Positions 29,705 through 48,682 of a stretch of DNA of 64,000 nucleotides are shown piece by piece (position 1 is the first letter of the stretch; each line of letters begins with the position of its first letter). Location: contig JBAZUU010000001.1 of the NCBI GenBank assembly GCA_041661275.1, forward strand, positions 165,057-229,056, in the 5' to 3' direction. The notes under the pieces were generated by a model. It saw only the letters and a program-made list of their open reading frames with translations. It made no database searches and was not told the origin of the DNA. The DNA comes from Parcubacteria group bacterium (GTDB taxonomy: Bacteria > Patescibacteriota > Minisyncoccia > Moranbacterales > UBA2206). Position numbers and translations under genes: made by a program.

Positions 29705-30847
29705 CTATAGGGCAATCCGGTATAATTTACCGTCGGCCTTATTGGTGAAAAAGAGAAAGCTTTCGTCCAAGTTCAGAAATAGTCCGGTGGCATCATAGGA
29801 ATCTTTAATGTCAGTCGTTTCTAAAATTCTAGTCTTTTTCCCATCAGCTACATTGACTTTCCAAAATGTGTCTGTCGTTTTGAATTTTCCTTCCATATAT
29901 TCATTGGGCAAAATGGCTGAAGCTGGAATATTCCCCGGGAGAGAATAATAGATAGTTTTCCCGTCGCGCGACCAGACGCATTTAGACACAAATGTTGGAA
30001 TATCAAGATTTCTGTATTCTCCTCCGTTATAATTCATAACAGCCAGTTGCATTTTTGTTCCGGCGCGTTGGTCAGCGCTGGAAACGAGAACTAAATTGCC
30101 ATCGGGGCTCCACATATAATCAGCTCCGAATTTTTCCTTGTAAATGGCCTTTTTTTCGCCGGAAATTAGCGGAACCGTTTCAAAAATGGTTTGGGAATAG
30201 CTGTCGGCGCTATTCCAAAAAGAGACGAGGCCACTTTTGGGGATTTGAGCGATAGAAATATTCCGGTAGTCAATGTCGGCCAGTTTTGTCCAGCCGGATC
30301 CGTCAGGATTGGAAACGTTCAGGGTTCTTTTTTTGGTTTTGGGATCGTAGAATTTATAGAATATTTTGTTGCCGGTAGCTTGCCAGGCGATCTCATCAAC
30401 ATTTTTTTTGATGGGGACGGCTTTTTGGGTGGAATAATCATAATAGTAGAACTGCGCTGACCCGTCAGCTCCGGTAAATTTGGTGATCACTTTTGTCTGA
30501 TCCGGCGACCACAAAACACCAGCCAGTCCCGGAAGTTCTTTGGAAGAAATGGTAATTTTATTAGCGCCGTCAGTATCAATTTTGTAAGTCTGTCCGGTTT
30601 TGGAATAATACTCGATAGCGTTATCGGTGGGAATATAAACAGGAGCGATCACCGCTTCGTCACTCAAGGCTTTTATTTTTACTTCATCTTTCGGGACTGT
30701 CGGCGCGGGGATTTCCGCCGTTTTTTCAGGAGTCGTTTTGGCGGTTGTGTCCGGCTTTTTGAACGACAAATTATATACTCCCCAGAGGAGGAGCGCAAGA
30801 ACCAAGATTATTGAGGATAATAAAAAGATTTTTTTGACGATGGACAT
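29705..30847 (-). CDS. membrane-anchored PD40/TolB-like beta-propeller protein
   Basis: N-terminal TM segment, then WSPDQTK and MWSPDGN PD40-like blades. Confidence 0.5.
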   Translation of the reverse strand: MSIVKKIFLLSSIILVLALLLWGVYNLSFKKPDTTAKTTPEKTAEIPAPTVPKDEVKIKALSDEAVIAPVYIPTDNAIEYYSKTGQTYKIDTDGANKITISSKELPGLAGVLWSPDQTKVITKFTGADGSAQFYYYDYSTQKAVPIKKNVDEIAWQATGNKIFYKFYDPKTKKRTLNVSNPDGSGWTKLADIDYRNISIAQIPKSGLVSFWNSADSYSQTIFETVPLISGEKKAIYKEKFGADYMWSPDGNLVLVSSADQRAGTKMQLAVMNYNGGEYRNLDIPTFVSKCVWSRDGKTIYYSLPGNIPASAILPNEYMEGKFKTTDTFWKVNVADGKKTRILETTDIKDSYDATGLFLNLDESFLFFTNKADGKLYRIAL

Positions 30848-30872
30848 AAAATCTCCAGTCGTTTTTAAATGA

Positions 30873-31694
30873 TTATTTCGATGGTGCTATTAATTCTAAT
30901 GAAGCTTTGTTTAGACATTCTGGAGAACTTGAAAGGACTAGATAGTTACCAACTAATCCATAATTGATGGATTTTTTGGTATTGTCCGGAAGAACAACAT
31001 TTGCGTATCTATATTCTCCATTCTTAAAAGCCAAAGTTTGTTGTAATTGGGTTGATGTAAATTGGATTCCTGGGAAGAGGATAGAATATGTATCAGATAA
31101 AATTGATGATTCCCAATCCTTCATAAATTTGATAGCATCATCAAATTCATCACCATTATAGCCAGGAATATATTTAATAGTCATCTGTAATCCATAATCA
31201 TCTTTGTTTCCCAAGGTACAATGAAAAAATTCATAGTCAGTACTATCCAGAAATGGAACGAGACTGGCCTTTAAATTTAGCCCCAAATTTTTGGCCGTGC
31301 TGCTTAAGGGTATTATATTTTTATTTGAATCAGAAAAAACAGTCCATTTTATCGGTTTAGCTCCATCAGAAGCCTTTTTTGATGTAAAAGAATCAAATGA
31401 CTTTTGTGTTTCTTCCTGGTTGTTAGCGTTATTTATGACAGAATAGCTGGTGTTATCATCTGGAAGTATTTTTTTTGTGGCGTCGGAACTGGTTGAATTC
31501 TGCGTGCTGGAAGACGGGAAAGAGGACTGGTTATTGTAGGTTGATTTTGAAGAGGGTTGGTCGGAAGATGTAGCTGGAACTGTTTCGCCGGACCCTGTTT
31601 TTTGAGTTTTAGAGGAGAAAGCGAAAAATAAATAAGCCAGAATAATTAGGAAGATTATCGATATCATTATGATTATAAGTTTATTTTTTGACAT
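30873..31694 (-). CDS. secreted Ser-rich hypothetical protein
   Basis: N-terminal TM/signal segment and a low-complexity S/T/N-rich region. Confidence 0.4.
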   Translation of the reverse strand: MSKNKLIIIMISIIFLIILAYLFFAFSSKTQKTGSGETVPATSSDQPSSKSTYNNQSSFPSSSTQNSTSSDATKKILPDDNTSYSVINNANNQEETQKSFDSFTSKKASDGAKPIKWTVFSDSNKNIIPLSSTAKNLGLNLKASLVPFLDSTDYEFFHCTLGNKDDYGLQMTIKYIPGYNGDEFDDAIKFMKDWESSILSDTYSILFPGIQFTSTQLQQTLAFKNGEYRYANVVLPDNTKKSINYGLVGNYLVLSSSPECLNKASLELIAPSK

Positions 31695-31704
31695 ATGTAT
31701 TTAT

Positions 31705-33015
31705 TTAAGTACTGCTAGCTTTGATTACTTTTATATCCTGTTTGAGCATATAGTTGTTCGCTCCGGTAACAATTCCTTTTTCAGCTCCAGCGGCATGAGT
31801 GATAGTAGAACAACCGTCTTGTTCGCATATGGCAGCGTGCCCGCTGGATCCATCATTTCTGACTATGATATCCCCAGCTTTTAGGTCGCTTGTATTTCCG
31901 CTATATGTTTCTGCTTTGGAATATAATGTCGCTGTATTGATGGAAGAACAATCTCCCAGGGAAGTATTCCCTGATTTTTTAAATGCATCGCAAGCAAGTT
32001 GGCCGCAATCGGTATATTTTGGATCTGTTGCGCAATCGTTTCTTAGTGTTTGACTATAGGCGCATCCGTCAGTTTTCATTTGTTGGGCGGCGCTGACTAC
32101 GCTACTATTGCCTGTTCCGCTCGAACTGCTAGCTGCTGTTTTGGCATCTGATTCACATTTAGCGTTGCACGTAGTGAGCTCAGTACTTGTTTTAGAGGAG
32201 GAGGAACATTCTTTTTTGCAATCAGCCAGATTAGAAGCGATTTGAGAAGCGGTTTGGCCGCTACTGGTGCCGGAAGTGCCACTGCTGGTTGTTGCGCTGG
32301 AAGTGGTGTCGCAAGTAATAACATTCCACTTGCCGACAACCGTTCCAACTTCATTTGAACTGGCGGTGAGTATGGTTAGCAAAATGGTATTAATAGCCAG
32401 CCAGGCGGCAAGAGTGATAGCAAATCCGACTATAGAAGCCTTGAAACAATTTTTGGCGGTGGTGATCATCGCCTCCGATCCGGAAGACATCATATATATC
32501 AAACCGGCAATGACAATCCCGACAATAGCGACGGTGATGAGAATGCTTTTCCCCCAATTAACAAGGTTTTGGATGCCCTGGATCAGGTGGCAAATAGTGC
32601 ATGGCTTGCCGCCCGACTTTCCGCAAGGAACGATGCCGCCGGTGGAAGCAGTCGAGGAAGATGTTCCGGTTCCCGTGCCTCCAGTACCCAGGGAACTTCC
32701 TGTACCTCCCGTTCCCAAGTAAGTTCCAGTGCCTCCCGTTCCCAAGGCGCTACCGCTTGTTTCTTCGGCCCATTTATTTGCTCTATGACAACACACTTCA
32801 TCATCAGCGCAGCTCCCCGATACTATTCCGTACTCAATGCAATTAAGACTACTGCTGGAATTTGCTTTATTGATGCAAAACCCCATTTTCTGTCCGTCAG
32901 ACATTGTTTTCCCGCATTCGTCACCTTCAGCAGCTAAAGAGGTCGATGGCCATAATATAATCATCAAAAAAAATATGGCCGATAAATATAAAAAACTTTT
33001 TTTGTTTTTATTCAT
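31705..33015 (-). CDS. T4SS-pilin-like (two-helix hairpin) protein fused to a C-terminal CHAP-like hydrolase domain
   Basis: Signal peptide. IQNLVNWGKSILITVAIVGIVIAGLIYMMSSGSEAMITTAKNCFKASIVGFAITLAAWLAINTIL is the CPR/Gram-positive T4SS_pilin pattern. A Gly/Thr/Ser linker and a CKKEC Cys-rich segment follow. C-terminal CAYSQ...GDIIV...GHAAICEQDG is CHAP-like (Cys/His). Confidence 0.5.
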   Translation of the reverse strand: MNKNKKSFLYLSAIFFLMIILWPSTSLAAEGDECGKTMSDGQKMGFCINKANSSSSLNCIEYGIVSGSCADDEVCCHRANKWAEETSGSALGTGGTGTYLGTGGTGSSLGTGGTGTGTSSSTASTGGIVPCGKSGGKPCTICHLIQGIQNLVNWGKSILITVAIVGIVIAGLIYMMSSGSEAMITTAKNCFKASIVGFAITLAAWLAINTILLTILTASSNEVGTVVGKWNVITCDTTSSATTSSGTSGTSSGQTASQIASNLADCKKECSSSSKTSTELTTCNAKCESDAKTAASSSSGTGNSSVVSAAQQMKTDGCAYSQTLRNDCATDPKYTDCGQLACDAFKKSGNTSLGDCSSINTATLYSKAETYSGNTSDLKAGDIIVRNDGSSGHAAICEQDGCSTITHAAGAEKGIVTGANNYMLKQDIKVIKASST

Positions 33016-33037: not shown

Positions 33038-34213
33038 TTATTCTCTTTTTCTTCTTTTCAAAACAACAAGAACGACAAAAATTACGATCATTATGAGAAG
33101 AGCGATCAGGATAATATAGACAATTTTTGAAGTTTGGGTGGTGGTTTGAGCAACGCTGTTATCTGATGGCTGGGTCGCGACAGAAGATGAAGCAGTCGGT
33201 TTTTGTTCGGATCCAGCCCTCAAGAGAAAAGACGATTTGTTTTCTGTATTTTCCCGATAAATGTTGCTTCCAATAGTGAATATAAATTCTTCCTTGTTTC
33301 CAGCGGAAAAAACTCGAGAAACTTTTCCGGAAGCGGTCAGCGTGATTGGCAGTTTTGTTTTTGTGCTGATGTCATAGGAGTACACTTTTCCATCAGTATC
33401 AACAATGACCAGCGAATCACTGTTCAAAAACGCCAAGTCTGTGGCGGAAAAAGCGTCGTCAGTGGCAGCCAGATTTCCATCTCGTGGAGTATATTTATAT
33501 ATAGAGTCACCTGATTTTATAATAAAATATTTTTGTTCAAACGGATCGGAAATAATTTTTTGAATGCCTCCGGCAAGAGGATGATATGTGGCTTTTTTTT
33601 CTGAAGAATTAATCGCATAAAATCCTTTTTTCATAGGGAAAACTGTAAAATTACCCATATTTACGGAAGAAACGATCAAATTCAAATCGTCAGAATCGCC
33701 GGTGATATCAGTTAGTTTTGTGAATTTTTTGAAGCCAGGATCATTGATACTGGCGATAGAAATATTTTTATTGTCCCAGTCGTAAACAACCTGGTCATTA
33801 GATGCCCAGCCAATGGATATAATTTTTTTGTCCAGCAGGGTTGCTTTCTTAGTGTCTAAATCATAAATCCACCAATTCAATGAATTTAATTCTCTTTGGG
33901 GAGAGTATAATTCCAGTTTTTGTAATACTGCCAAAACATTTTCTGACAAAATAAGTGCTTTTGTCCCATCAGGAGACCAGATAAAATTATGGACAAAACC
34001 GCCAAGGCTTTTATCCCTCGGAACAGAGCTGATATTATTATTGTTATCAAGTTTCTCTATTTCCCCTTTGTCACAATTAAAAAACAAAAAATTGCTGTTT
34101 TTAGTAAGCGTAAAATCAAAAGTCTGACATTGGGCAAAAGCGAAATTAGAAAATAACAAAAAAAAGATTATGAAGAAATTTGCCATACAAAGTATTTTTT
34201 TTATGTTATTCAT
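33038..34213 (-). CDS. membrane-anchored PD40-like beta-propeller protein
   Basis: FIWSPDGTKALI repeats. Paralogous in architecture to 29705..30847. Confidence 0.5.
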   Translation of the reverse strand: MNNIKKILCMANFFIIFFLLFSNFAFAQCQTFDFTLTKNSNFLFFNCDKGEIEKLDNNNNISSVPRDKSLGGFVHNFIWSPDGTKALILSENVLAVLQKLELYSPQRELNSLNWWIYDLDTKKATLLDKKIISIGWASNDQVVYDWDNKNISIASINDPGFKKFTKLTDITGDSDDLNLIVSSVNMGNFTVFPMKKGFYAINSSEKKATYHPLAGGIQKIISDPFEQKYFIIKSGDSIYKYTPRDGNLAATDDAFSATDLAFLNSDSLVIVDTDGKVYSYDISTKTKLPITLTASGKVSRVFSAGNKEEFIFTIGSNIYRENTENKSSFLLRAGSEQKPTASSSVATQPSDNSVAQTTTQTSKIVYIILIALLIMIVIFVVLVVLKRRKRE

Positions 34214-34232
34214 AATGATATAAAATTATAAT

Positions 34233-35237
34233 TTAACACTTGCTATAGACATCATAGTTGGACATGATTCCATCGCAGTAACTTCCGCCGCACGCGCTGT
34301 CATTGCATGATCCGCAATATGCTTTCGCGGCTTTTCTTATGCCTTCTTCGCTATAATCCCCGCCGCTATCCTTGGCAATCTTTTTTGCGCCGCAGTTCAG
34401 AGCATCTTGTCGATTAAATTTGCTTCCGCTACATCCGTATGTACTCCATGTAGTGTCGTCAAACTGCATAGCGCCTCCATTCTTTCCATTGATCGAGTTA
34501 TTACTTGAAACACACCCACCGAATGAATTGGTAAAAGCGGAGGTACATTCTCTTTGAATAAAGGAATTTAGAACTGATTCGGGCACTCCATATTTTTCAG
34601 ACGCAGACTTAACTTCACTGGCATAAGTAGAATCGCTTAAATTGCTGCAGCTGGCTTTTGTACTTACTCTACCGCCACTACTTGTGCTGGCTGCTGTTTT
34701 GGCAGTCATGCAGGTAGAATAACAGTCGTCGTATTTTATACTGGAATCGCTGCCGCCAGCCTCGCAATATTTTTTGCAATCTTCTGCATTTTGAGCGGCG
34801 GTTGCGGCAGATGTTCCGCTGCTACTGGTGCCGCTGCTACTGCCACTAGGGAATTTTATTTTTATATTCACTAAATCCGGATTGATGGTATTGAGCAGAA
34901 GCCAGGCGGTCATAGCCATGGCGAGGCCGATGAGAGCGTCAGTGATATATCCTTTGGCTTTTCCCATCGTGGCGTTGTTGCCGGCCGAAGTCATATACAT
35001 AAATCCGCCGATCATAATCATAAGAAGAGCGCAGATGCCGATAGCCCAGATGCCGAATTTGTAAACAGCTTTGACGTATGCAGGAAATTCAACGGCGCCG
35101 GAAGCCATACCGGGGATTTTTTCCATCGGAGTATATGTAGTGTTGGCTGTGCTAGCCGCGTGGGAAAAATGGGAAATGCCCAATCCAAAACCTACGATGG
35201 ATATTAATACAATAAGAAATATAATTTTTTTATTCAT
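34233..35237 (-). CDS. T4SS-pilin-like protein fused to a C-terminal lytic transglycosylase (SLT) domain
   Basis: YVKAVYKFGIWAIGICALLMIMIGGFMYMTSAGNNATMGKAKGYITDALIGLAMAMTAWLLLNTI pilin hairpin. A CKKYC Cys-rich linker follows. The C-terminus carries ESVLNSFIQRECT...GGAMQFDDTTWSTYGC, the SLT E-S/Q-AMQ pattern. Confidence 0.55.
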   Translation of the reverse strand: MNKKIIFLIVLISIVGFGLGISHFSHAASTANTTYTPMEKIPGMASGAVEFPAYVKAVYKFGIWAIGICALLMIMIGGFMYMTSAGNNATMGKAKGYITDALIGLAMAMTAWLLLNTINPDLVNIKIKFPSGSSSGTSSSGTSAATAAQNAEDCKKYCEAGGSDSSIKYDDCYSTCMTAKTAASTSSGGRVSTKASCSNLSDSTYASEVKSASEKYGVPESVLNSFIQRECTSAFTNSFGGCVSSNNSINGKNGGAMQFDDTTWSTYGCSGSKFNRQDALNCGAKKIAKDSGGDYSEEGIRKAAKAYCGSCNDSACGGSYCDGIMSNYDVYSKC

Positions 35238-35243: not shown

Positions 35244-37865
35244 CTATATTTGTCTTTCTTTTATGTTCGGAAAAAATGAGAGGATAAATCCGGAGAAAAA
35301 TAGCAATAGCGCTCCAGTGAGAACTATTCTGAATAAAAATGCGATATAGGTCGGGGTTGAGGAGAAAAGAGAGGCCATTATTTTGTTCTTGCCGGTCGTA
35401 TTCTTTGACACTGATGAACCGGAAAATGAATCGACAGAAGTGATGTCGATGGAATCTCCCACTTCCGTTTCATAAAATCCGCCATAATTGACGCCCCAAT
35501 AAGCGTTCAGGGCTTTTTTGGTGAGAGTATTAGGAAAATATTTGGCGGCAATTCCCACCGTCGTTGTTTCTCCAGCAACTTTGGCTGGAATAACCAGTTC
35601 GTTATTGCTGTTGATCTCATAGCCATAAGTCTTGGCGTTAGACGTATTAATGCCAACGCCATCTACTATCCAGCCATAATTTTCGCCTTCCGGAATAAAC
35701 CCGGTGAAATTGGCAGTGAGTTTGATTTTTTCTCCAGCTATTGCTTCGAAATCGTCCTTGCTGTTGTCCGGCCATTTTTTGCCGTCATAGTCAGTGTAGT
35801 ATCCCAAAAGGACGGGCTTGCAAATAGTTTCATCGGCAGTGGCTATTTTCACTTCCGGCTCGACAACCTGGAAATAGCGGGTCAGATTAACTTTTTTTCC
35901 GCTGGTTATGTCGGTGGCGGTAAGTCCGATCGTATATTGCTCACCCGGTTCATCAAGAATCGGAAAATAGGCGACATTGGTTTGTTTGGATAGGTCGCAG
36001 CCTTCAAAAAAACATGTGGAATAGCTGAATTGTTCTCCATTGATTGTCCAGGAAAAATCGGACATCCCTGCGGGCACTTTCAATCCTATAATTTGATCTT
36101 TAACAACAGGGCAGACAGATTTATCTATGCCGCTGCCGCATAATTCCGTTGAACTCATACTGACTATCGGATTTCCCGAGGCGTTATTGGCAATAGTGGT
36201 TTTATAAGCCTTTATTTTTTCCGTGGCGGAAGTGACTGGAATGACAATGTAGTTGTGTCCCTCTCTGACTGATTTTGAAGAAATATTTTCCTTGACGGTC
36301 AGTTTGACTTTCAGATAAAAAGTATCTGTGTCAGAGAAATTGAGTCGGAAATTTAAGGAATCGATGCCTATTCCAGAAGTTTGGGTGGATTCTTTAAGCC
36401 GGGCTTTAGTAATAGGGTCTCCCCAGTCGTCGGGATTAGCTTCGCTGCTTTTATATACTTGCCAGGAATAATTCAAATAACTATCGTTATTAGCGTTTAA
36501 AACAGAAGAATTTATGGTAACTTTGTCTCCATCCTGGCCATCGGTGGTTGAATCATTCATAGGAGCTTCCGGGGAACTGGACAGTTCAACCTCCATCTTT
36601 TCTTTTGTTCCACCGCCTTGCATCGGGTCAATCATATTTTCAGGAAGACACTTGTCAAGGTCGGTAACATTTTTCACATTATTAGGATAATAACTGGAGT
36701 CTATATTTTTATACACCGGAGAAGCGGTAGTGGACGATGACGTATCAGAGATGACAGTTCCGTCTGCTGTTGTAGTCACGATAGTTCTTGTTGTGGTTGT
36801 GGTTGTAGTCTTGGCGTAAAAAGCCGCTCGTTCATTCAACACTTCATTAGTGGTGACAATCACCCTGGTTGTTTGTCCGGGATCCGGCGTATCAACAGTA
36901 GGGGTGTCGCTAACCGTTTCTGTTATCGGATACTTATCAGTATAGTTCAGGTCGCAGCTATTGTTGAGTGTGGCAAACATTATTTTATATGAAGAATCAG
37001 CTTCCTGGGTAGCCTCAATGGATATCCCTTCCACCACCACTCCGATCTCATCCCCTTCTTCATAAACCCAGGAAAAACTGGTCGCTCCCAGCCCAGCCAC
37101 GTTAGCCTCGTCTCCATTCCCCGTGTCAGCTGTGTCGGGATCATTGGGATCGGTATGCCAGAATTTTTCTTCATCCTTGCCAAACGAGCCGTCTCCTGTG
37201 TCATGGGCTGTATCAGACTTTTCAGCAAAAAGATGATGGTCGCAGGTTATTGGATATTCATCTCCTGACTCTGTGTCGTGGATATAGCAAAAGTTATTTT
37301 TCCCTTTTTGATCGTTTCCTCCCCAAACGGCGCTATAACCGTCGCTGTCAGAATCCGAACCATAGTTTTCATTTTTGTATTCAAAATCATTGTTGGCGAA
37401 TATACGCGCCGCCTTTATTTTATAGTCATTAATATCAATGTCGCCATCATCATCCAGATCGCATTTGTCTTTTTGAGTATCAGAAAGTCCGCTGGATTTT
37501 TCCGGACAGCCGTCAGATTTCAGGTACCAGGTGAAATACAAATCCTTATCAGTGTTTAGGAAATACATCGGAGTGGCGACAGCCGTCACTTTCTGTCCCG
37601 GAACGGGGTTAGAAGGGTTAAAATTCAGGGAAACCTGCGGCTGCTGTTTTTTTCTCCGTTGGACGTTCATTGTCTGGATGATGTATTTCAGTTCAGTTTT
37701 GTTGACGCCCAGGTCATTCAACGCGTCATTCATAGCTCCCGTGGTAGCTGACGTAGCAATACTGCCTACTTCAACAGCCGAAGCTTGGGTATGAGGGATA
37801 AAAAGCGAAAGACACATTATCAGAGAAAAAACAGAAAAAAATATTTTTGTTATTTTATTTTTCAT
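35244..37865 (-). CDS. large (873 aa) secreted surface protein with Asp-rich Ca-binding-like repeats and a C-terminal TM anchor
   Basis: Signal peptide. DLDDDGDIDINDYK is a dockerin/EF-hand-like motif. Thr-rich stretches and a C-terminal hydrophobic anchor. Confidence 0.5.
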   Translation of the reverse strand: MKNKITKIFFSVFSLIMCLSLFIPHTQASAVEVGSIATSATTGAMNDALNDLGVNKTELKYIIQTMNVQRRKKQQPQVSLNFNPSNPVPGQKVTAVATPMYFLNTDKDLYFTWYLKSDGCPEKSSGLSDTQKDKCDLDDDGDIDINDYKIKAARIFANNDFEYKNENYGSDSDSDGYSAVWGGNDQKGKNNFCYIHDTESGDEYPITCDHHLFAEKSDTAHDTGDGSFGKDEEKFWHTDPNDPDTADTGNGDEANVAGLGATSFSWVYEEGDEIGVVVEGISIEATQEADSSYKIMFATLNNSCDLNYTDKYPITETVSDTPTVDTPDPGQTTRVIVTTNEVLNERAAFYAKTTTTTTTRTIVTTTADGTVISDTSSSTTASPVYKNIDSSYYPNNVKNVTDLDKCLPENMIDPMQGGGTKEKMEVELSSSPEAPMNDSTTDGQDGDKVTINSSVLNANNDSYLNYSWQVYKSSEANPDDWGDPITKARLKESTQTSGIGIDSLNFRLNFSDTDTFYLKVKLTVKENISSKSVREGHNYIVIPVTSATEKIKAYKTTIANNASGNPIVSMSSTELCGSGIDKSVCPVVKDQIIGLKVPAGMSDFSWTINGEQFSYSTCFFEGCDLSKQTNVAYFPILDEPGEQYTIGLTATDITSGKKVNLTRYFQVVEPEVKIATADETICKPVLLGYYTDYDGKKWPDNSKDDFEAIAGEKIKLTANFTGFIPEGENYGWIVDGVGINTSNAKTYGYEINSNNELVIPAKVAGETTTVGIAAKYFPNTLTKKALNAYWGVNYGGFYETEVGDSIDITSVDSFSGSSVSKNTTGKNKIMASLFSSTPTYIAFLFRIVLTGALLLFFSGFILSFFPNIKERQI

Positions 37866-39056: not shown

Positions 39057-39060
39057 AATT

Positions 39061-39179
39061 GTCTGAACCACTGATTTTCACATGAATTCACATGATTTCA
39101 CTGATTTTTATTATTAAAATTGTTGTTATTTTTTATTCATGTGTAATCAGGATAATCAGTGCGAATCAGTGGTTCAGAC
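39061..39179. repeat. intercistronic palindromic element (family 3, copy a) overlapping the virB4 TGA stop
   Basis: Arms gtctgaaccactgatt (39061-39076) and aatcagtggttcagac (39164-39179). The interior carries CACNTGATT / AATCANGTG motifs around an AT-rich centre. Confidence 0.7.
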
Positions 39180-40982: not shown

Positions 40983-41013
40983 AATTTTTTTGAATAGTAT
41001 TCCTTAAGTAACC

Positions 41014-41151
41014 CCGTCATTCTGAGCGGAATGACCCCGCCTTGGCGGGGGAATGAAGTCGAAGAATCTGCTAAATATTAGCACCAGTGATAATATATAG
41101 TAGATCCTTCGACTACGTCCAATAAGAATTGGACTTCGCTCAGGATGACGG
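41014..41151. repeat. MITE-like palindromic element, family 1 copy C, between the two virB4 parts
   Basis: ccgtcattctgagcg ... cgctcaggatgacgg. Inner gaagtcgaagaatct ... agatccttcgact. Carries an internal ccccgcc-tt-ggcgggg hairpin. Confidence 0.75.
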
Positions 41152-41159
41152 TTGTTTTT

Positions 41160-41846
41160 TTAGCGTATTTCCATCAAACTCGAATCCTTCAATTCTATCG
41201 AATTATATATTTCCGGATTATATGAATTAAACATCAACTCAATGAGTTCCTGCGTTTTCAAGGGAGCGATGCGCAGGCCGATTCCGGCCAGGGCGGCGAT
41301 AATGTGATCCACTCTTTGGAACAGCTGACTTTTGTATGTCTCAAAATTTTCCCGCTTTTCCAGAATGTTCTTTTTCGGATTGAACATATTGAAGAGATTG
41401 GAGAAAAAACCCTTACTTTCATTCTCAATGGGAGAAAACGGAACGATGATATAGAAATTCTTGTCCATAATGTTGGTGGAAGCGATGAGTTGCCCGATGA
41501 AGTTTTTATATTCCGAGATCTGCATCCGCAAAAGTTCATTGGGCTGTTTCTTCTCGTTTTCCGTGAGGAAATTGAGATAATTTTCCATATTGAGTTTTCG
41601 GGAACTAACCAGGATTTGCAATGGAAAATCGACGGAATTGAGAAAATTCTGATATTGATTAATGATCGCTTCCTGCTCGTCGGTGGATTTCAGTTCGAAA
41701 TTGATGGAAGATACGGCCAGGACACTGCGCAACGCGCCGCTTTTGAGCATAATGACATCTTCTTTCACTTCCGCCACGTCTAAAAATTGCTGGGTAGCGG
41801 CATTGGTTGGTTTTTTGGATATTTTGTTGGAATGTAGGATTTCCAT
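41160..41846 (-). CDS. VirB4 N-terminal domain protein (split VirB4)
   Basis: FLDVAEVKEDVIMLKSGALRSVLAVSSINFELKSTDEQEAIINQYQNFLNSV matches the CagE/TrbE/VirB N-terminal domain pattern. 229 + 602 aa approximates a full-length VirB4. Confidence 0.55.
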   Translation of the reverse strand: MEILHSNKISKKPTNAATQQFLDVAEVKEDVIMLKSGALRSVLAVSSINFELKSTDEQEAIINQYQNFLNSVDFPLQILVSSRKLNMENYLNFLTENEKKQPNELLRMQISEYKNFIGQLIASTNIMDKNFYIIVPFSPIENESKGFFSNLFNMFNPKKNILEKRENFETYKSQLFQRVDHIIAALAGIGLRIAPLKTQELIELMFNSYNPEIYNSIELKDSSLMEIR

Positions 41847-41852
41847 AAAAAG

Positions 41853-41948
41853 TCTCGAACCACTGATTAGCACATGATTATCCTGATTACACTTGATTTT
41901 TAAAATTCAGTGAAATCAAGTGTAATCAGTGATAATCAGTGGTTCTGA
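41853..41948. repeat. intercistronic palindromic element (family 3, copy b)
   Basis: Arms tctcgaaccactgatt and aatcagtggttctga. The upstream gene's TGA stop (41936-41938) lies within the arm. Confidence 0.7.
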
Positions 41949-42331
41949 TTTAGTATTTTACTCAACTCTTCTATCTTATCTCCGCTTATCTTCTTCCTCT
42001 CATGTATTATAGCATTTTTGTCTTTTCCTTTTTTCGGAATCACTATTTTTTCCGGCAAGCGATGCCAGACATACATTCGCGGGCGGAAGATATAGAAGAC
42101 GGAAGACGAAAGAAAAGCAATGAGCGGTTGGCCATACGGGCGGTAAAATGCCATGGCGCTGAAAACCGCGGCGATTATGATGGCGGCGATGATGAAGCCT
42201 TGAGTATCGAGAAAATTCCAAAAAACCAGCGCCACAACGCCACCCAATCCCAACCAGCCCAGCTGTTTGGCGGTGAGTGGTCCTACTATTTTATCTTCAA
42301 TGTCTAAAAATTGTGGAACGTTAAAAAGCAT
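41936..42331 (-). CDS. VirB3/PrgI-like small membrane protein
   Basis: 132 aa with two TM helices (LGWLGLGGVVALVFWNF; FIIAAIIIAAVFSAMAF), positioned directly upstream of virB4 as virB3 usually is. Confidence 0.45.
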   Translation of the reverse strand: MLFNVPQFLDIEDKIVGPLTAKQLGWLGLGGVVALVFWNFLDTQGFIIAAIIIAAVFSAMAFYRPYGQPLIAFLSSSVFYIFRPRMYVWHRLPEKIVIPKKGKDKNAIIHERKKISGDKIEELSKILNQNH

Positions 42332-42335
42332 AGCT

Positions 42336-42496
42336 GTCCGAACCACTGATTATCACTGATTTTCCTGATGACACGTGATTAGTGTCAGTGGCATTATTTG
42401 ATTAATATTTTTTATATATTACTTTACTTCTAAACTTTTTGCTCCGAAACAAATCAGTGAAATCATTTTAATCACGTGAGAATCAGTGGTTCAGAC
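42336..42496. repeat. intercistronic palindromic element (family 3, copy c)
   Basis: Arms gtccgaaccactgatt (42336-42351) and aatcagtggttcagac (42481-42496). Interior has cacgtgatt, cactgatt and aatcagtg motifs. The upstream TGA stop at 42491-42493 is in the arm. Confidence 0.7.
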
Positions 42497-43792
42497 ATCC
42501 TTGAGATTTACCACATTCCTCGGCAACTCTTCTTTTCCATCATCATATGGCGTGGCCGGAGCGATGTGCAACGGCTGCGGCTCGATCGGCGCTTGTGGTC
42601 TTTCGGGGACAAACGGTTTCGGCGGCGCTGGTTGCATTTGCGGTCTGACAGGAGCCGGCGGAGTCACGGGAGCTGGTGGAGAAAATTTTTGTTCTTTTTC
42701 TTTCTCAAACGGCAACTTTTGCGGGGAGGAAAAAACTAACTGACTGGTTTTGGATTGCTCAACTGGTTTGAACTCCGGAGAACCGAATCTCACTTCTCTT
42801 ATATTTTGGGAAGCATCTTGCCTGTGTTCAATATCTGATTCTTCCGGCTTTTGGGGAATATGATAGTGTTCGTAATTTTTTTCCAGATTATTTTGCGGCG
42901 CTTGTTTCTCAGGAGAAAACTGTGGCCGTATCGGCGCTCCAGCGGATTGGATATTATCGAAATTATAAACAGGCCTGCTTACCTGCCTGCCGGCAGGCAT
43001 GGCTTCTTGCTTCATACTTTCTTGTTTAGCCATTGCCGGAAAAACTATCTGTTTTTTTGTTGTGTCGATTGTTACCGGCGTTTTCTCATCGTATGATTTC
43101 AGGATATATGACAACTTATTCCTGTCTTCCGCGGACAATCTTTTGGCGTTTTCGTTCTGAAACATATAGTTCCCGCGAGTGATGGTGTCATGGGATTCAT
43201 AACCGACGCTATACGTATAATCCGAAACCCAGTTTTTGATTGTCGGACGAACCGGTTCTTGCCCTCCTCGTATTTTTATCGATTCGGACGTGACAAATTG
43301 ATCGGCAACAGTCGGGTATTTCGCCAGGGCGTCGGGCAGGGAAATTTTCGTCAGTTGCGCCTGGTAGGCTTTTTCCAGGCTGTCATCGTTGATAATTTTT
43401 TGGATAACTATTTGAGAAATTTCCTTGGCGGTGTTGAGATCTACGCCCATTTCTTTGTACAGGATTGACGGAAAATCTTCCAAATGAATCTCGCCGAAAT
43501 AATAACTGCGGATAGCGCGAGAAATGTCGGCTAGTTGCAGGAGTTGTAAATTGTATGTTTTTCCGATTTCTTGGATTTTATTGCTAGTTTCTTGAGAAAC
43601 AAGCTTATCTTTGATATTTTCAGGCAATGTTAAAAATTTTTCTTGTCTTTTTTCTACATCCCCATCGCGTTCATCTACTAGATTTTTTGTTACTGAAACT
43701 GCTTGGGGTACAGTAAATTGGCGAAGTTTTATTTTTTCTAAAACATCTGGCTTCACATATTTCAATACTTGAGGAGAATAATCTTGTAGCAT
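42491..43792 (-). CDS. hypothetical protein with a Pro-rich C-terminus (433 aa)
   Basis: No TM segment or signal peptide. The C-terminal PPAPVTPPAPVRPQ region is low-complexity. Confidence 0.4.
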   Translation of the reverse strand: MLQDYSPQVLKYVKPDVLEKIKLRQFTVPQAVSVTKNLVDERDGDVEKRQEKFLTLPENIKDKLVSQETSNKIQEIGKTYNLQLLQLADISRAIRSYYFGEIHLEDFPSILYKEMGVDLNTAKEISQIVIQKIINDDSLEKAYQAQLTKISLPDALAKYPTVADQFVTSESIKIRGGQEPVRPTIKNWVSDYTYSVGYESHDTITRGNYMFQNENAKRLSAEDRNKLSYILKSYDEKTPVTIDTTKKQIVFPAMAKQESMKQEAMPAGRQVSRPVYNFDNIQSAGAPIRPQFSPEKQAPQNNLEKNYEHYHIPQKPEESDIEHRQDASQNIREVRFGSPEFKPVEQSKTSQLVFSSPQKLPFEKEKEQKFSPPAPVTPPAPVRPQMQPAPPKPFVPERPQAPIEPQPLHIAPATPYDDGKEELPRNVVNLKDV

Positions 43793-43834: not shown

Positions 43835-45847
43835 CTAAATAGGAACCCCAAGATTTCTTAATGCCTTAACATTAGCAGAGCTTAACCGCTTACTTAGTTC
43901 ACCTTGAGCTTGCGGTTTTAGGCTAATATACGAATCCAATAATGCAGCTGATAGCTTTGCCCTGTTTGGCCCTGTTAGTTTTTTATCAACAACTGCCCAG
44001 TTTTGATCTCCCCATTTTTCAGCTGTCATTTTACCCATTTCATCTTCGATTACTTGATATTTAATCATGTCGGGTGTCCATAATGGATTTGCTGTTTTAA
44101 TATCTTGATATTCTTTAGAATTAATATCCTCTGCTTTACTGATAGCAACAACATCAGTTCTGTTTTGTTTGACCTTGGCATCAAGTGCGCTCTTGATACG
44201 TGTTGACCCCTTTGTATTTCTAAGAAATTCGTTATAAACATCACTATCCATTTCTTTCAAATCGGCTAAGGCATAGGCGGCTGCGGCATCACCCTTTTTC
44301 GCAAGATCCTGAAGCTCAGGTAATGACTTCTCTTTTTTATATTCATCCGCTTGTTTTTTCATATCTCTTTCTTCAGCGCTTTTGGAGCCTAATGCAGTAG
44401 CCATTCTTGCTTCTCTGCTCTCTCTACTAGATTTAAACTTATTTTTAATTTCGCCATACCGCTGTTGTACTCCTCCAGGAATTCCAGTTGCCTTAAATCC
44501 CATCCAGGGTGCTTTATATGTTCCCCTGCCGACCCACTTCATAAATTTTTCTCCTCTTCCCACAATCGCCCCAGCGCCAGCGATACTCATTTTTTGTGCC
44601 GAGCCGATGCCGACCCATAAAATGACGATCGGGATAGAGAAAAAAGCGAAGGCGGCAATAGTCTTAGCAATCTCCGGTTGCGTTTGCGCTGTGGCTATTA
44701 TGCTCATCTGTCCTTTCTTCTTAGCAATTTCCCCCATCATCTTCGTAGCAACAACCATCATGAAAATCATAACCGGGCCAAAGAATGCGTATTTGAAAAG
44801 GGTGTCCCACCACTCACTGGCGTATTTAGAAAGGAAAGGAACGATTGATCCGACAAAAGCAATAGAAGCAAAAATTATAAGAATTGCCAAAACTACTATT
44901 CTAATAAGAAGCAAAATGGCGATAATAATCAGGGTTACCATAAACATGAAGGTAAAAACAATAGCAGCTATAAGAAAGCTCATATCCGAATTTACACTCA
45001 CAGACCCACCAACCTTAGGGTTAACAATATCGGCTAATCCCCCATTATTTGCAAAATCTATAAAAATTTTTCCGTCTTTAATATTGGATCCCAAGCCATT
45101 TATCAGGTAATACATTATAACATTGGAAAAGTCTATAATAACTCGGGCAATGGGAAAACTAAAATTGACCAAAAGAGCCATTATGATAAGAGTCACTAGC
45201 AGACTTTTGTAGCTATATTTTGAAATTTGAAAAACGGTGCAGAAGGCGGAGAAAAGAAGAACGAGAATGAAGGCTACGTTTAACATATCTCGGACAAAGC
45301 CCCATAATTCATATATAACAGAGTTATCCAAAACTGCTTTCATATTGGCCGTATCAATAACCCATACAAAAAGAGTGCTAGCGGCTACTATAAGAGCACC
45401 AATAAATTTCAGAACGTAAAGCAATAAGCATTTTATCCCCTTAAGCGAAAGGACAGCATCGAGCAAACCTATTCCACAAACATCTTCAGTTTTTTGACCC
45501 ACTCCTATTGTGCCTTCAGAATTTTTATCAAGTGTTGCTTGTGTTCCTGATTTCAATTCGTCTGCCTTTGCTTTATCCTCCGTGTATCCTACGAAAATTG
45601 AATCACCGCCTCCGCTAGCGCTAGAAGTTGTGAGTGTTTTTTTACACGCACTCTCGCTGTCTGACGTAAAATAATCTACTTCTGCAGAAAGCCCTCCCGT
45701 GTTATTTGTCTGATGGACGCAATATCCTGCTCTTGCTTTTTCCACTTTCCCCAATCCAAAACCAGCCACAATAAATACTGCGAGAAACATATAAAATACG
45801 ATTTTATTTTTCGTGTTTGTTTTCATTGTCTGGATTACCGAAAACAA
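43835..45847 (-). CDS. VirB6/TrbL-like polytopic membrane protein with a C-terminal hydrophilic domain
   Basis: Signal peptide, a 130-aa exodomain, at least 7 TM helices, and a 270-aa charged C-terminal domain. Confidence 0.55.
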   Translation of the reverse strand: MFSVIQTMKTNTKNKIVFYMFLAVFIVAGFGLGKVEKARAGYCVHQTNNTGGLSAEVDYFTSDSESACKKTLTTSSASGGGDSIFVGYTEDKAKADELKSGTQATLDKNSEGTIGVGQKTEDVCGIGLLDAVLSLKGIKCLLLYVLKFIGALIVAASTLFVWVIDTANMKAVLDNSVIYELWGFVRDMLNVAFILVLLFSAFCTVFQISKYSYKSLLVTLIIMALLVNFSFPIARVIIDFSNVIMYYLINGLGSNIKDGKIFIDFANNGGLADIVNPKVGGSVSVNSDMSFLIAAIVFTFMFMVTLIIIAILLLIRIVVLAILIIFASIAFVGSIVPFLSKYASEWWDTLFKYAFFGPVMIFMMVVATKMMGEIAKKKGQMSIIATAQTQPEIAKTIAAFAFFSIPIVILWVGIGSAQKMSIAGAGAIVGRGEKFMKWVGRGTYKAPWMGFKATGIPGGVQQRYGEIKNKFKSSRESREARMATALGSKSAEERDMKKQADEYKKEKSLPELQDLAKKGDAAAAYALADLKEMDSDVYNEFLRNTKGSTRIKSALDAKVKQNRTDVVAISKAEDINSKEYQDIKTANPLWTPDMIKYQVIEDEMGKMTAEKWGDQNWAVVDKKLTGPNRAKLSAALLDSYISLKPQAQGELSKRLSSANVKALRNLGVPI

Positions 45848-45941: not shown

Positions 45942-46313
45942 TTATTTATTCTTATCTTTATTTTCCATTGTATTGATAATTTTGGAAAAAATCATTGCCA
46001 ATTCCTGCGATTCTCTCCATAATTCTCTACATTTCACTTTATGTTCCGGAGCTGCTTTGGCTAAAACTTGCAGCCAATACATACTTTCCTTAGTCTCTTT
46101 CTTGCATATATGAATTTTATTTTTAAAATCTTTTCTTGAACTGGCTCCATTTGCCTCACAGTAGTTGGCGCCGATACTAGTAATGGATCTTATTAATTGA
46201 CCGATAATAGGAATGGTAATTATATCTTTTTTAATATTCCTCAAAAACTCTATTGTATTTTCGCTAAGCTTTGTTGTTCTTTCTTCTAGATTATACTTTT
46301 CAGATTTACTCAT
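45942..46313 (-). CDS. four-helix-bundle protein of the 23S rRNA IVS / Avd-like family
   Basis: 123 aa. IGQLIRSITSIGANYCEANGASSRKDFKNKIHICKKETKESMYWLQVL resembles PF05635/TIGR02436. Confidence 0.65.
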   Translation of the reverse strand: MSKSEKYNLEERTTKLSENTIEFLRNIKKDIITIPIIGQLIRSITSIGANYCEANGASSRKDFKNKIHICKKETKESMYWLQVLAKAAPEHKVKCRELWRESQELAMIFSKIINTMENKDKNK

Positions 46314-46359
46314 TTAAAATTCTGTCATTTAAAATTTATTAAAAATTTCAAATTAAAAA
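46314..46359. repeat. AT-rich AATTAAAAATT-type repeat tract
   Basis: aaatttattaaaaatttcaaattaaaaattaaaaatt. Confidence 0.45.
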
Positions 46360-47511
46360 TTAAAAATTCCTTTGGGGTGGCGGGAAGCTGGAGCCGGAGC
46401 TGCGGGTGGTGGAGGTCGAGCCGGAATAGTCGGAAGAGCTAGTGCCGGAAGAACCGGAAGTTGACGAGCCGCCGACATATTTGTAATAGAGAGGATCTGA
46501 GCTTAGGCTGTCGACTGATGATGATGAGGACGAGCTGGAAAGCACGGAACTGGATGATGTGCTGGAGCTGTAATAGGAAGACGGACTTAGGCTTCCGGCC
46601 AGCCCGGTAAGCGTGCTGGAGGAAACGCCCAGTTTGCTCGCGGCCATACTGATGCCTTGCTTCAGAGCCTGTGTCATCAGCTTGGAAACCAGAGCGGTGA
46701 TCACTTCTTCCGGGTGGGTGGCGGCGGCGATAACTTTGTTGCCGGCATCCATCGTATTGGCCTTAGTTAAGGGAATCACAGAACCCGGAAGAGTTATTTT
46801 GCCCTTGCCGTTTGATCCTTCACCCACGCCGATGCCGCCAAGATAGGCTTTAGATTTAGTTTCAGCCAGTTTTCTTTCTTCCGCTTTCTTTTTTTGATAT
46901 TCACTTTGGGCATTCACATCAAATGACCAGGGGTTGTTGATGCCGGAAAGATAGCTGTTGAAATTTTTGAAATTTCCGCTGGAAAACATTGATGACGGAT
47001 TGCCCGAATAGGAAAAAGTCGGATCCTTTTTACTGATGGTGTTAGCCTTGGCCATCGCGACCAATTGGCTGGCATATCCTGAGCTGCCACTGCTGCTGAA
47101 ACCTTCGCTAAGGCTGGAATAGCTGCTGGTTCCTTTGCCGGACGTAATTTTGCTCAAATAATCGTTCATATAGAGTTTAGTGTTGTTGTCTGGAGTTTTA
47201 AAGAGGTAAGTTTCCCAATCAGTGATAAATTTGGCGCTGCCACTCTTCCCGCTGCCGGCGATTGCCGCATCCACTTGTTTGTTGAGGGTTGAAATGGCTT
47301 GCTGTTTCAACATTCCCAAGACTATTCCCTTGATCCGGTCGCGGATGTCTTCCAGCATTTGCTTGTAGGTGAATCCGGGAATGTCCGGCCAGAGGGCATG
47401 AGCTTTAGGGGTGGTTAGGGGAGAAGAAAAGATAAAAAGACAAACAAAAATAACAAGAATAAATCTTTTATAGTTTGGAAGCAAAATATTTTTTTTGTTT
47501 TTCTCTCCCAC
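46360..47511 (-). CDS. secreted Ser-rich hypothetical protein
   Basis: TM/signal N-terminus and long poly-Ser tracts at the C-terminus. Confidence 0.4.
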   Translation of the reverse strand: MGEKNKKNILLPNYKRFILVIFVCLFIFSSPLTTPKAHALWPDIPGFTYKQMLEDIRDRIKGIVLGMLKQQAISTLNKQVDAAIAGSGKSGSAKFITDWETYLFKTPDNNTKLYMNDYLSKITSGKGTSSYSSLSEGFSSSGSSGYASQLVAMAKANTISKKDPTFSYSGNPSSMFSSGNFKNFNSYLSGINNPWSFDVNAQSEYQKKKAEERKLAETKSKAYLGGIGVGEGSNGKGKITLPGSVIPLTKANTMDAGNKVIAAATHPEEVITALVSKLMTQALKQGISMAASKLGVSSSTLTGLAGSLSPSSYYSSSTSSSSVLSSSSSSSSVDSLSSDPLYYKYVGGSSTSGSSGTSSSDYSGSTSTTRSSGSSFPPPQRNF

Positions 47512-47521
47512 CCGTTTTATA

Positions 47522-48682
47522 TTAATTTGCGGTCGTACCTATGCCGACAGTCGTAGTTGAGGTTATTCCCACACCTACGCTCGTGTCCGTAGTTGTTGTA
47601 ACCGTGTCTATTATATTCGTGCCGTCAATTTTTATCCCGTCCAAGCCAAAGCTCTTCAACTTCGCCTGAAGATCTGCGTCGCTATAGGAGATGTTATATT
47701 CGGCAAATTTTGACTGGATATCGGTAGTGAAGCTCGTGATGCTTTCTACGAAAGTTTCCATTTTGGAAAAATTGGCGATGTCTCGCAAGGGATCATCAGC
47801 ATTAGGAGTGAGAGTTCCGCTTAGTTCTTTGGCGTACATGGTATAACGCATTGCTTTGATATGCGTATCCACCATCTCCTCCGGAACCTCTACGAGTTTT
47901 AGTTGCTCCAGAATTTTGTCAGAACTTTTTTCCAGATCGGTAAGATTGGAAGTGGAGCGCGCTTCCATCGCCTGAATGACAGTTTGATATATACTGGTGA
48001 CAACCTTGCTCATATCCTGGCTGGAAGTGATGGGAGTCGGAGAGTTGCTGGAAAAAATATAGGCGATAGCGACGGTATAGTTCAAAAAATCTTCCTTCTT
48101 TCTTTTTGTCTGTTCATCAGCGGAAAGCTTGGAATAATCCTGTTTCAAAATTTTTATATCTTCTTTTTTCACTTCTGGCAGATTATCGTCTGTTGTTCCG
48201 GATGTTCCCATGGACTGGTCGATTATTTCCTGGAGCTGGTCGAGTGTTACGGTCGCGTCATCCTGACTGACTGTTCCATCTTCATTGACTGTCGTACTCT
48301 GATTTTCCTGGGCGGTTTGCACCAGTTCTGTTATCTTTTGTGATACTTGGTTAGTAAGATTAGTATCACTTGTTCCCAGAACCGCACCGGAATTGGATGT
48401 GTTGGCCACAGCCAACTTGTCTCCCGGAGCCGGTTTTGTCGGGTCATAACCGCTTTTTACTTCCGTTCCGTCAGAATATCCGTCGCCATCCGTGTCGGCA
48501 TTTTTAGGATCAGTTCCGTAGAGCGCTTCCTCCTGATCGGTGAGGCCGTCCTGATCGGAGTCGAGAAAAATATTTCCGGAAGAATTAGTGTTTTGCTGGG
48601 CGCTGACGTAATACGAAAAACTCAAAACCACCAGCAACAACAGCACTGCCAAAGAAAGTTGGATGTTTTTTATTTTCATCAA
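47522..48682 (-). CDS. secreted protein with N-terminal thrombospondin-type-3-like Ca-binding repeats
   Basis: Signal peptide and DSDQDGLTDQEE...DTDGDGYSDGTEV motifs. Confidence 0.45.
   Translation of the reverse strand: MMKIKNIQLSLAVLLLLVVLSFSYYVSAQQNTNSSGNIFLDSDQDGLTDQEEALYGTDPKNADTDGDGYSDGTEVKSGYDPTKPAPGDKLAVANTSNSGAVLGTSDTNLTNQVSQKITELVQTAQENQSTTVNEDGTVSQDDATVTLDQLQEIIDQSMGTSGTTDDNLPEVKKEDIKILKQDYSKLSADEQTKRKKEDFLNYTVAIAYIFSSNSPTPITSSQDMSKVVTSIYQTVIQAMEARSTSNLTDLEKSSDKILEQLKLVEVPEEMVDTHIKAMRYTMYAKELSGTLTPNADDPLRDIANFSKMETFVESITSFTTDIQSKFAEYNISYSDADLQAKLKSFGLDGIKIDGTNIIDTVTTTTDTSVGVGITSTTTVGIGTTAN

Follow-up and report, generated by a model that had tools for sequence, protein, structure and literature searches.

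The DNA segment described here (positions 29705-48682 of the window, by which we mean the whole analysed stretch of 64,000 nt from a Parcubacteria-group bacterium) contains a type IV secretion system (T4SS) locus in which two predicted cell-wall hydrolases are attached to pilin-like helical hairpins. The explanation that we favour, and regard as reasonably probable, is that of a non-conjugative, chromosomal T4SS of the Patescibacteria type which is inherited vertically and whose VirB1-type hydrolases are delivered on VirB2-like carriers. The segment consists of 16 consecutive open reading frames (ORFs), all on the minus strand, as stated in an earlier reading of the sequence (the original prediction below). 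It is important to note that this type of locus, including the missing relaxase and the position close to dnaA and ksgA, is already published as the Patescibacteria T4SS (PMC10633639, PMC12102498, PMC12857230), and that identical proteins from a Parcubacteria-group bacterium, encoded on a contig of 299.6 kb, have already been deposited under the names 'MAG: pilin' and 'ATP-binding protein'. The rule that wall hydrolases are mounted on hairpins looks undescribed: no mention of pilin-hydrolase fusions was found in the text or table of PMC12102498 or in the wider literature, the coverage of which was incomplete, so that an earlier description is possible.

The first fusion protein has 334 amino acid residues (34233..35237, minus strand) and contains a pilin-like hairpin (~34884-35087), a twin CX3C motif (34710-34778) and an SLT/lysozyme-like head (~34236-34670). 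The second has 436 residues (31705..33015, minus strand), with the hairpin at ~32359-32595, the twin CX3C motif at 32155-32220 and an NlpC/P60 endopeptidase head at ~31708-32109. In both proteins hydropathy and AlphaFold2 (AF2) models indicate a signal peptide followed by two hydrophobic helices folded as a hairpin, as in VirB2; the helices span residues 51-83/88-118 in the 334-residue protein and 141-176/181-219 in the 436-residue protein. However, VirB2 is little more than a hairpin, while here about 210 residues of linker, CX3C stalk and head follow it. Against the T4SS_pilin family (PF18895, cut-off 26.6 bits) the 436-residue protein scores 31.2 bits and the 334-residue protein 26.2 bits. 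A profile built from the homologues of each protein detects the hairpin of the other (E 1e-9 and 2e-11). These hairpin profiles have no further match in the window, and thus they revealed no bare pilin there. Among 82 relatives from comparable loci, 76 match PF18895 at E 0.01 or better.

The hairpin is followed in both chains by a Ser/Thr-rich linker and by the twin CX3C motif, which is modelled as a helical hairpin. The Cys-rich linkers CKKEC and CKKYC of the original prediction belong to these motifs (CKKEC...CNAKC and CKKYC...CYSTC). The two proteins are homologous throughout the carrier, from the hairpin through the linker to the CX3C module, with 31% identity over 134 residues (E 1e-9). 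In Foldseek searches the hairpin is weakly similar to conjugative pilins of archaea and of Agrobacterium (8dfu, prob 0.69; 8exh).

Profile searches of both fusion families against the sequences of the PDB gave nothing useful, and fold searches were therefore needed for the heads. The single sequence of the 436-residue protein matches the NlpC/P60 family of Pfam at only E 0.02. However, its head is modelled by AF2 with pLDDT mostly above 90, and Foldseek places it with SagA (6b8c, prob 1.00, TMt 0.76) and also with LytE and P60 at prob about 1.0, and with MAP1204. Sixty relatives of this head were found among 1.84 billion representative proteins. Of 49 aligned relatives, 42 match PF00877 (NLPC_P60) and 37 also match T4SS_pilin; residues D336-C337 and H393 are invariant in all 49, and H407 is kept in 37. 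The fold and the Cys-His-(His) triad in the D-C-S/G and G-H motifs point to a putative NlpC/P60 enzyme. The original prediction had called this head CHAP-like; the assignment to a peptidoglycan hydrolase stands, the family does not.

The head of the 334-residue protein shows the features of goose-type lysozymes and SLT enzymes (GH23): a lysozyme-like fold, a helix that ends with the catalytic Glu, and a G-x-M-Q motif. The catalytic residue, E230, is conserved (14/16), in accordance with the SLT domain proposed originally. Both proteins are candidate VirB1-like components in the sense of PMC12857230, namely membrane-anchored, predicted muralytic enzymes within a T4SS operon. Searches with hidden Markov models and the AlphaFold models thus support the hairpin and hydrolase domains that had been proposed, and no conjugative T4SS with a relaxase is adjacent within the 64 kb.

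Related genomes show how general these fusions are. A scan of one genome per species gave 80 loci, mostly labelled Moranbacteria or Parcubacteria, and together with two earlier loci 82 were compared. In a parallel set of 82 pilin-domain proteins, the two of the window included, 59 carry a C-terminal extension of at least 80 residues after the hairpin, and all 52 hydrolase heads detected in related loci sit on a hairpin. The original prediction regarded the fusion as a non-standard architecture. This is correct in comparison with model T4SSs, yet in this clade the predicted fusion is the norm.

Five types of heads were distinguished: canonical SLT (19-20 proteins), SLT_3-like with the motif ES...GLFQIN (10), divergent SLT-like, the class found in the window (4-6), Hedgehog/LAS (16) and NlpC/P60, which within the 82-protein set occurs in this window only. 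The 16 proteins of the Hedgehog/LAS type end in a Cys-rich domain with invariant H...D...HxH and the consensus SCHYGG..AVD..NHxHVS (for example L012:16893-17774, L004:17543-18634 and L024:17118-18038, where the prefix denotes the locus). Their only PDB matches are Hedgehog N-domains (E 0.002-0.04), which allows us to assign them as zinc peptidases of the Hedgehog/LAS type; the H/D/H zinc ligands are invariant in all 16. That non-homologous enzymes have been swapped onto one carrier is an argument for selection acting on wall cutting. Complete loci were defined by the presence of the gene for an 873-residue protein and of the final propeller gene described below; of 47 such loci, a head that cuts glycan is present in 34 and one that cuts peptide in 16, with 11 loci having both. 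The proposed rule of one glycan cutter plus one peptide cutter per locus therefore holds only in these 11. The pilin position directly after the 873-residue protein gene is kept in most complete related loci. This fixed operon position, together with the conserved catalytic residues and the repeated replacement of enzymes on the same carrier, supports a muralytic function linked to the T4SS.

The core of the system is, judging by its protein relationships, a Patescibacteria T4SS related to Gram-positive conjugation machines of the mating-pair-formation (MPF) class FATA. The VirB4 ATPase (39174..40982, minus strand) matches P-loop_TraG with 99.3 bits and also AAA_10, DUF87 and CagE_TrbE_VirB. 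Its best solved relative is the VirB4 of Thermoanaerobacter, a Firmicute (4ag5, E 2e-51, compared with E 1.5e-8 for TrwK), and a place in the lineage related to Gram-positive systems (MPF-FATA) is accordingly predicted. The alignment with TrwK of R388 begins only at TrwK residue 293. The preceding gene (41160..41873, minus strand, probable ATG at 41846) codes for a TrsD-like protein of 237 residues that resembles the N-terminal part of VirB4. It has a weak match to TraC_F_IV at profile positions 134-173, the earlier part of the TraC/VirB4 N-domain, and its orthologue in locus L001 carries the TraC-like family PF26593.

The original prediction described these two ORFs as a split VirB4. Two ORFs are indeed present, but a broken gene is not: a separate TrsD-like ORF adjoins VirB4 in 79 of the 82 related loci, and VirB4 is therefore not disrupted. 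A pseudogene or recent disruption was rejected, since a VirB4 of ~600 residues with a separate TrsD-like protein is the rule, and only the palindromic spacer of 177 nt between them is inserted. The spacer is 2-250 nt long in all but three of the related loci measured. The comparison of sequences shows the pair to be the ancestral two-gene arrangement of TrsD and VirB4 (TrsD/TrsE-type); among the T4SS components found close to virB4 in Patescibacteria, it was reported to be the most abundant (PMC12102498).

Two further core proteins are encoded upstream. The small PrgI/VirB3-like membrane protein (41936..42346, minus strand, probable ATG at 42331) was correctly recognized in the original prediction (PF12666, 41.1 bits) and is present in 75 loci. 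The VirB6-like protein of 670 residues (43835..45847, minus strand) is polytopic, with at least six hydrophobic segments and a long hydrophilic C-terminal part. Its proposed identity is retained with some reservation: it has no Pfam match of its own, but 4 of 35 orthologues match TrbL/VirB6 (best E 1e-8). In the published table for a Moranbacteria genome the gene two positions upstream of PrgI is labelled VirB6 (PMC12102498).

The arrangement is that of the Patescibacteria type, with TrsD-like and PrgI genes directly upstream of virB4 and VirB6-like and VirB2-like genes nearby. The locus is chromosomal and lies near the replication origin, 12 kb from dnaA/dnaN (dnaN 14506-15663, dnaA 15955-17322, rnpA/yidC/jag 17788-19432). 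Its flanks are formed by two Wzy-type ligase genes at one end and by UbiA and RsmA/KsgA at the other. A Pfam scan took in 49 ORFs of the window, nearly all of those of at least 100 residues, and found no VirD4, VirB11 or relaxase among them, as had been claimed; neither an integrase nor mobile-element borders were found in the 64 kb. Neither a relaxase nor a coupling protein is thus located near virB4 within the 64 kb, and the housekeeping flanks are conserved. The lack of relaxase, coupling protein and element borders in the 64 kb and the fixed chromosomal synteny do not correspond to a conjugative T4SS or an integrative and conjugative element, and agree with the non-conjugative, T4SS-like envelope locus originally proposed.

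In the Moranbacteria-type loci displayed, the recurrent order is TSP3, Ser-rich, VirB6-like, 433-residue protein, PrgI, TrsD, VirB4, small membrane protein, Rce1-like, 873-residue protein, one to three pilin genes and propeller, with RsmA-UbiA before the block and Wzy-Wzy after it. The more distant loci have rearranged outer genes and keep the PrgI-TrsD-VirB4 core. Since the gene order and the housekeeping flanks recur in most of the 82 loci, the locus is taken to be vertically inherited. The median identity across related loci is 78% for VirB4 and 66% for TrsD, compared with 44-55% for the housekeeping flanks (RsmA 55%, UbiA 49%). Among the 120 VirB4 matches listed, identities are 78-100% and lengths 587-628 residues; the close homologues that are named are nearly all labelled Patescibacteria, Parcubacteria or Moranbacteria.

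It is important to compare this locus with that of Southlakia epibionticum, whose T4SS is essential by Tn-seq, the pilin array included, and lacks both relaxase and coupling protein (Wang et al. 2023, PMC10633639). The locus of strain ML1 (SEML1_0006-0019) is likewise chromosomal and beside dnaA, has PrgI, TrsD-like and VirB4 genes in the same order, a VirB6-like protein and PF18895 pilins, and has no relaxase. However, Southlakia has six bare pilins of 104-186 residues, and its hydrolase domains are located on two large separate proteins of 643 and 1113 residues encoded just downstream of virB4 (PMC10633639), while here the hydrolase heads sit on the hairpins. Both of these Southlakia genes are essential; one product has a lysozyme-like and a cysteine-peptidase domain, the other a C-terminal Hedgehog/DD-peptidase domain (PMC10633639 supplements). 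The same enzyme classes therefore accompany both systems and are hairpin-mounted only here. The result on essentiality applies to Southlakia.

A survey catalogued VirB4, TrsD, VirB3, VirB6 and VirB2-like proteins across Patescibacteria and found relaxases missing (Quinonero-Coronel et al. 2025, PMC12102498). The T4SS of Paceibacteria was placed near dnaA, rnpA and ksgA in the same work, and our locus shares this proximity, the gene set and the lack of a nearby relaxase or coupling protein. That survey gave one label to each protein and concluded that most genomes with VirB2 are without VirB1. According to a FEMS review (2025, PMC12857230), the Patescibacteria T4SS is unique among monoderms for possible pili, and the known Gram-positive VirB1 homologues are all membrane-anchored, with SLT, CHAP, muramidase or LytM domains. 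Such enzymes are needed by Gram-positive T4SSs, and typically an SLT or muramidase domain is combined with a CHAP or LytM domain. PrgK (pCF10), TraG (pIP501) and Orf14 (Tn916) share with our proteins the combination of a membrane-anchored extracellular glycan cutter and peptide cutter encoded in a T4SS operon (PMC12857230). However, these proteins are anchored only once, at the N-terminus, and combine both activities in the same chain, while here the activities are divided between two proteins, in each of which a cleavable signal peptide, a VirB2-like two-helix hairpin and a twin-CX3C stalk precede the head.

Two other systems are similar in part. The TrsC-TrsD-TrsE genes of staphylococcal pGO1-type plasmids also code for a VirB3-like protein, then a separate small protein remotely like the VirB4 N-terminus, then VirB4; unlike the present locus, these plasmids have a relaxase as well as a coupling protein, and their system is conjugative. 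Helicobacter pylori ComB, cited as a precedent for import, is likewise a T4SS without relaxase, VirD4 and VirB11, but it has the diderm VirB7-10 and no hydrolase-pilin fusions. The role in a pilus, attachment or DNA uptake suggested in the original prediction is speculative for the present locus, and published accounts treat it likewise.

The observed gene identities, folds, catalytic residues, topology signals, conservation and domain swapping allow us to propose how the system may work; the docking, the processing, the wall substrate and any transported cargo are what we infer. The membrane core would be formed by PrgI/VirB3, the TrsD-like protein, VirB4 and the VirB6-like protein, together with clade-specific envelope proteins. 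Each fusion protein would be exported by Sec with cleavage of its signal peptide, and the two-helix hairpin would insert with both ends outside, holding the catalytic head on the Ser/Thr-rich linker and a disulfide-stapled twin-CX3C stalk. The SLT/lysozyme-like head (E230) would cut glycan strands and the NlpC/P60 head (C337/H393/H407) peptide stems. That this organism makes peptidoglycan is indicated by a class A penicillin-binding protein and UppP encoded in the window. The hairpin may dock the enzymes at the VirB6/VirB3/VirB4 platform, and in this case peptidoglycan would be opened only where the machine and its surface proteins cross the wall. Processing of the carrier by the Rce1-like protease of the locus is conceivable.

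Several points weigh against this explanation. We know of no experiment on any Moranbacteria T4SS, and to our knowledge there is no demonstration that PF18895 proteins polymerise or bind VirB6. The hairpin of the 334-residue protein scores 0.4 bit under the PF18895 cut-off. Of the 47 complete loci, 8 are without a recognised hydrolase head and 5 without any pilin gene, so that either the fusion is not indispensable or some heads went unrecognised. A VirD4-like coupling protein may, by analogy with other Moranbacteria, be encoded elsewhere in the genome. The high turnover of heads among close relatives fits enzymes directed at a host equally well.

The last point leads to the best surviving alternative, which we hold to be possible but rather unlikely. 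The hairpins would form or ride on a VirB2-type pilus, and heads on its surface or tip would digest host peptidoglycan at the contact site, so that host material could be taken up or effectors delivered. The swapping of five enzyme types on one carrier among close relatives resembles that in host-range arms races, and the weak likeness of the hairpin to conjugative pilins agrees with a pilus. The long flexible linker and the disulfide-stapled stalk would suit an exposed location, and the pilin arrays of Saccharibacteria are essential and divergent in sequence. However, a head of 130-210 residues on each subunit is difficult to fit into the lattices of VirB2/TraA pili. In addition, no partner of the immunity type tracks the type of head. 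Propeller proteins as such head-specific partners were rejected, because the last gene of the block is kept whatever the head, and also where there is no pilin gene.

A related and more speculative idea, which we consider doubtful, treats the PF18895 'pilins' of Paceibacteria as a modular carrier of hairpin, linker and twin-CX3C stalk with interchangeable heads. Either an enzyme-studded T4SS filament would bore through the host wall, or cleavage by the Rce1-like protease would yield a bare pilin and a free hydrolase. If the filament option were true, the T4SS would be a feeding or drilling organelle.

It is improbable that the two proteins are ordinary autolysins of growth and division that have a two-helix anchor and merely happen to be encoded beside T4SS genes. 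NlpC/P60 and SLT enzymes are common housekeeping autolysins, and the flanks contain other envelope genes (Wzy-type ligases, UbiA). However, their position after the 873-residue protein gene is kept, the same enzyme classes are essential in the Southlakia T4SS cluster, and the anchor belongs to the T4SS_pilin family, which occurs near virB4 in 1135 assemblies (PMC12102498). An enzymatically inactive, peptidoglycan-binding adhesin is more improbable still. Such a role was proposed for some VirB1 homologues of Gram-positive plasmids (PMC12857230), and no classical adhesin was found in Patescibacteria T4SS loci (PMC12102498), but the catalytic residues are retained in the heads (E230, C337 and H393, and the ligands of the 16 LAS heads, at the frequencies given above). 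A conjugative or mobilisable element with its relaxase and coupling protein outside the window is scarcely credible, although the VirB4/TrsD/PrgI core derives from Gram-positive conjugation systems and coupling-protein homologues occur elsewhere in Moranbacteria genomes, since the chromosomal position between the same housekeeping genes is fixed across related genomes, the 64 kb contain no integrase, relaxase or element borders, and relaxases occur in only 103 Patescibacteria genomes, rarely near virB4 (PMC12102498).

The delivery of hydrolases on VirB2-like carriers, if correct, has some general implications. In the only species tested the T4SS of Patescibacteria is essential; a 2024 perspective on Saccharibacteria called its role 'completely unknown' and mentions uptake as possible (PMC11665869). 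The VirB1-like and the VirB2-like proteins, hitherto catalogued as separate parts, are linked by the present locus and its relatives, and the VirB1 function 'missing' from many VirB2 genomes may be built into their VirB2-like proteins. This also calls for caution, as not every PF18895 match need be a pilus subunit. The swapping of non-homologous heads on one carrier provides a clean natural experiment on the needs of the machine, and we believe the hairpin-hydrolase rule to be worth reporting to specialists on T4SS and on Patescibacteria.

The remaining members of the block are mostly envelope proteins, all encoded on the minus strand. The first gene of the conserved block (47522..48682) codes for a secreted TSP3-repeat protein, as predicted originally (PF18884 TSP3_bac, 49.3 bits), with an N-terminal hydrophobic segment and an orthologue at the same position in 47 related loci. 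It is followed by an exported Ser-rich protein (46360..47511; 20% Ser) of no known family, recognized from its composition and N-terminal hydrophobic segment, with an orthologue in 48 loci. Between VirB6-like and PrgI genes is located the gene for a protein of 433 residues (42491..43792) without a transmembrane segment and with a Pro-rich C-terminus; it has an orthologue in 66 loci and belongs to no known family, no Pfam family being found across 34 orthologues. The small membrane protein after VirB4 (38601..39071, probable ATG at 39056, ~150 residues) has hydrophobic segments, is of an unknown family and is present in 57 loci. It was considered as a bare pilin, and this was rejected (hhalign prob 1-3%), though one orthologue hits PF18895.

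The next gene (37862..38521) codes for the Rce1-like, or CPBP, intramembrane protease (PF02517, 26.2 bits versus a cut-off of 22.4). It occupies the same position in 67 of the 82 loci, just upstream of the genes for the 873-residue protein and the pilins, and is thus a conserved member of the T4SS block that is absent from the T4SS part lists of the cited papers. The 873-residue protein itself (35244..37865), present in 62 loci, is exported, Asp/Thr-rich, with conserved Cys residues and a C-terminal transmembrane anchor, and belongs to no family. The orthologue sets of the 873-residue, 433-residue and VirB6-like proteins gave no further family or PDB assignment.

Each fusion gene was originally described as being followed by one for a membrane-anchored PD40 beta-propeller. 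The anchors and matches to propeller families were found, but all matches of the two proteins are sub-threshold, all to propeller families (DUF5050, 22.2 versus 27 bits; PD40, SGL, WD40), and only the second protein is a constant member. This probable beta-propeller protein with an N-terminal anchor (29705..30847) is encoded by the last conserved gene of the block and is present in 47 loci; PD40 is matched by 5 of 37 orthologues. The first protein (33038..34213), exported and with a C-terminal transmembrane anchor, is a distant paralogue of the second (25% identity, E 9e-6) and a variable member of the locus, with an orthologue in only 1 of 82 loci. Searches for PDB sequence matches of the propeller proteins found none. 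The gene at 30873..31694 codes for a lineage-specific Ser-rich protein of 273 residues with an N-terminal anchor, whose orthologue is found in 1 of 82 loci.

The 16th gene (45942..46313, minus strand) is an inserted cassette. It codes for a four-helix-bundle (4HB) protein of the 23S_rRNA_IVP family (PF05635, 48.1 bits), which agrees with the 4HB protein of the original prediction, but as a part of the T4SS it was rejected: it is sporadic (7 of 82 loci) and flanked by repeats, and its junctions vary. Since the junctions differ between genomes, its behaviour is that of a small mobile cassette. It is bracketed by AT-rich repeats, direct and inverted, at 45838-45955 and 46298-46376, which also match 2792-2942.

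Several palindromic elements are present as well. The spacer between TrsD and VirB4 (40983..41159, minus strand) is filled by a palindromic repeat element with an RNA minimum free energy of -72.2 kcal/mol (z -9.5). Copies of this strongly self-complementary family, with the termini GTCATCCTGAGCGAAGTC ... GCTCAGAATGAC, are found at 8603-8702 and 51336-51407, and related termini at 2107 and 8566. The copy at 51304-51407 lies in frame inside RsmA/KsgA (50805-51854, minus strand), approximately at residues 140-185, where it adds about 40 residues in a loop, and resembles the in-frame palindromic elements of Rickettsia. Other Moranbacteria carry insertions of varied length in this loop (for example the loci L006, L016 and L017), while some, such as L008, L021, L030 and L033, have only few residues there.

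A different hairpin is located at the junction of VirB4 and the small membrane protein (39065..39175, minus strand), bracketed by the 12-mer AATCAGTGGTTC, and sister intercistronic hairpins with the same 12-mer are found at 41857-41945 and 42340-42492 (minus strand). This 12-mer has six exact copies, versus 0.24 expected, all within the T4SS core. They form three inverted pairs made of TGATT heptads, which bracket three intergenic regions, each reaching from the stop codon of the upstream gene to ~10 nt ahead of the following ATG. Folding of the hairpins gives z-values of -7.0 and -7.7. A conserved riboregulator was considered and rejected, as the 12-mer is found in its exact form in 7 of 82 loci and strongly structured junctions are a minority of the foldable ones (9/33, 14/43 and 6/50). 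Because they are sporadic in related loci, the AATCAGTGGTTC hairpins are probably inserted palindromes rather than a conserved regulator. A second type of repeat, CGCCAAGGCGGGACATCCTCTCCCAAAGGGAGAGGAGGAA, forms an inverted pair at 1433-1512 and 8927-9004, which is 93% complementary and separated by 7.4 kb.

Rfam and tRNA scans found no Rfam families and no tRNAs in the window. The stretch 2928-5959 codes for a 7TM_transglut membrane protein and, after it, for two ATP-grasp proteins, of which one is fused to a putative zinc protease domain. Beyond the Wzy genes, at 23774-27179, are saccharopine-dehydrogenase-like, arginase-family and deoxyhypusine-synthase-like genes, probably of polyamine metabolism. 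An intact AbiEii/AbiEi pair adjoins dnaN at 12976-14392. Two adjacent ORFs at 51781-52392 and 52672-53295 match the C-terminal and N-terminal halves of AbiEii, respectively, with about 280 nt between them, which suggests a split or interrupted toxin gene.

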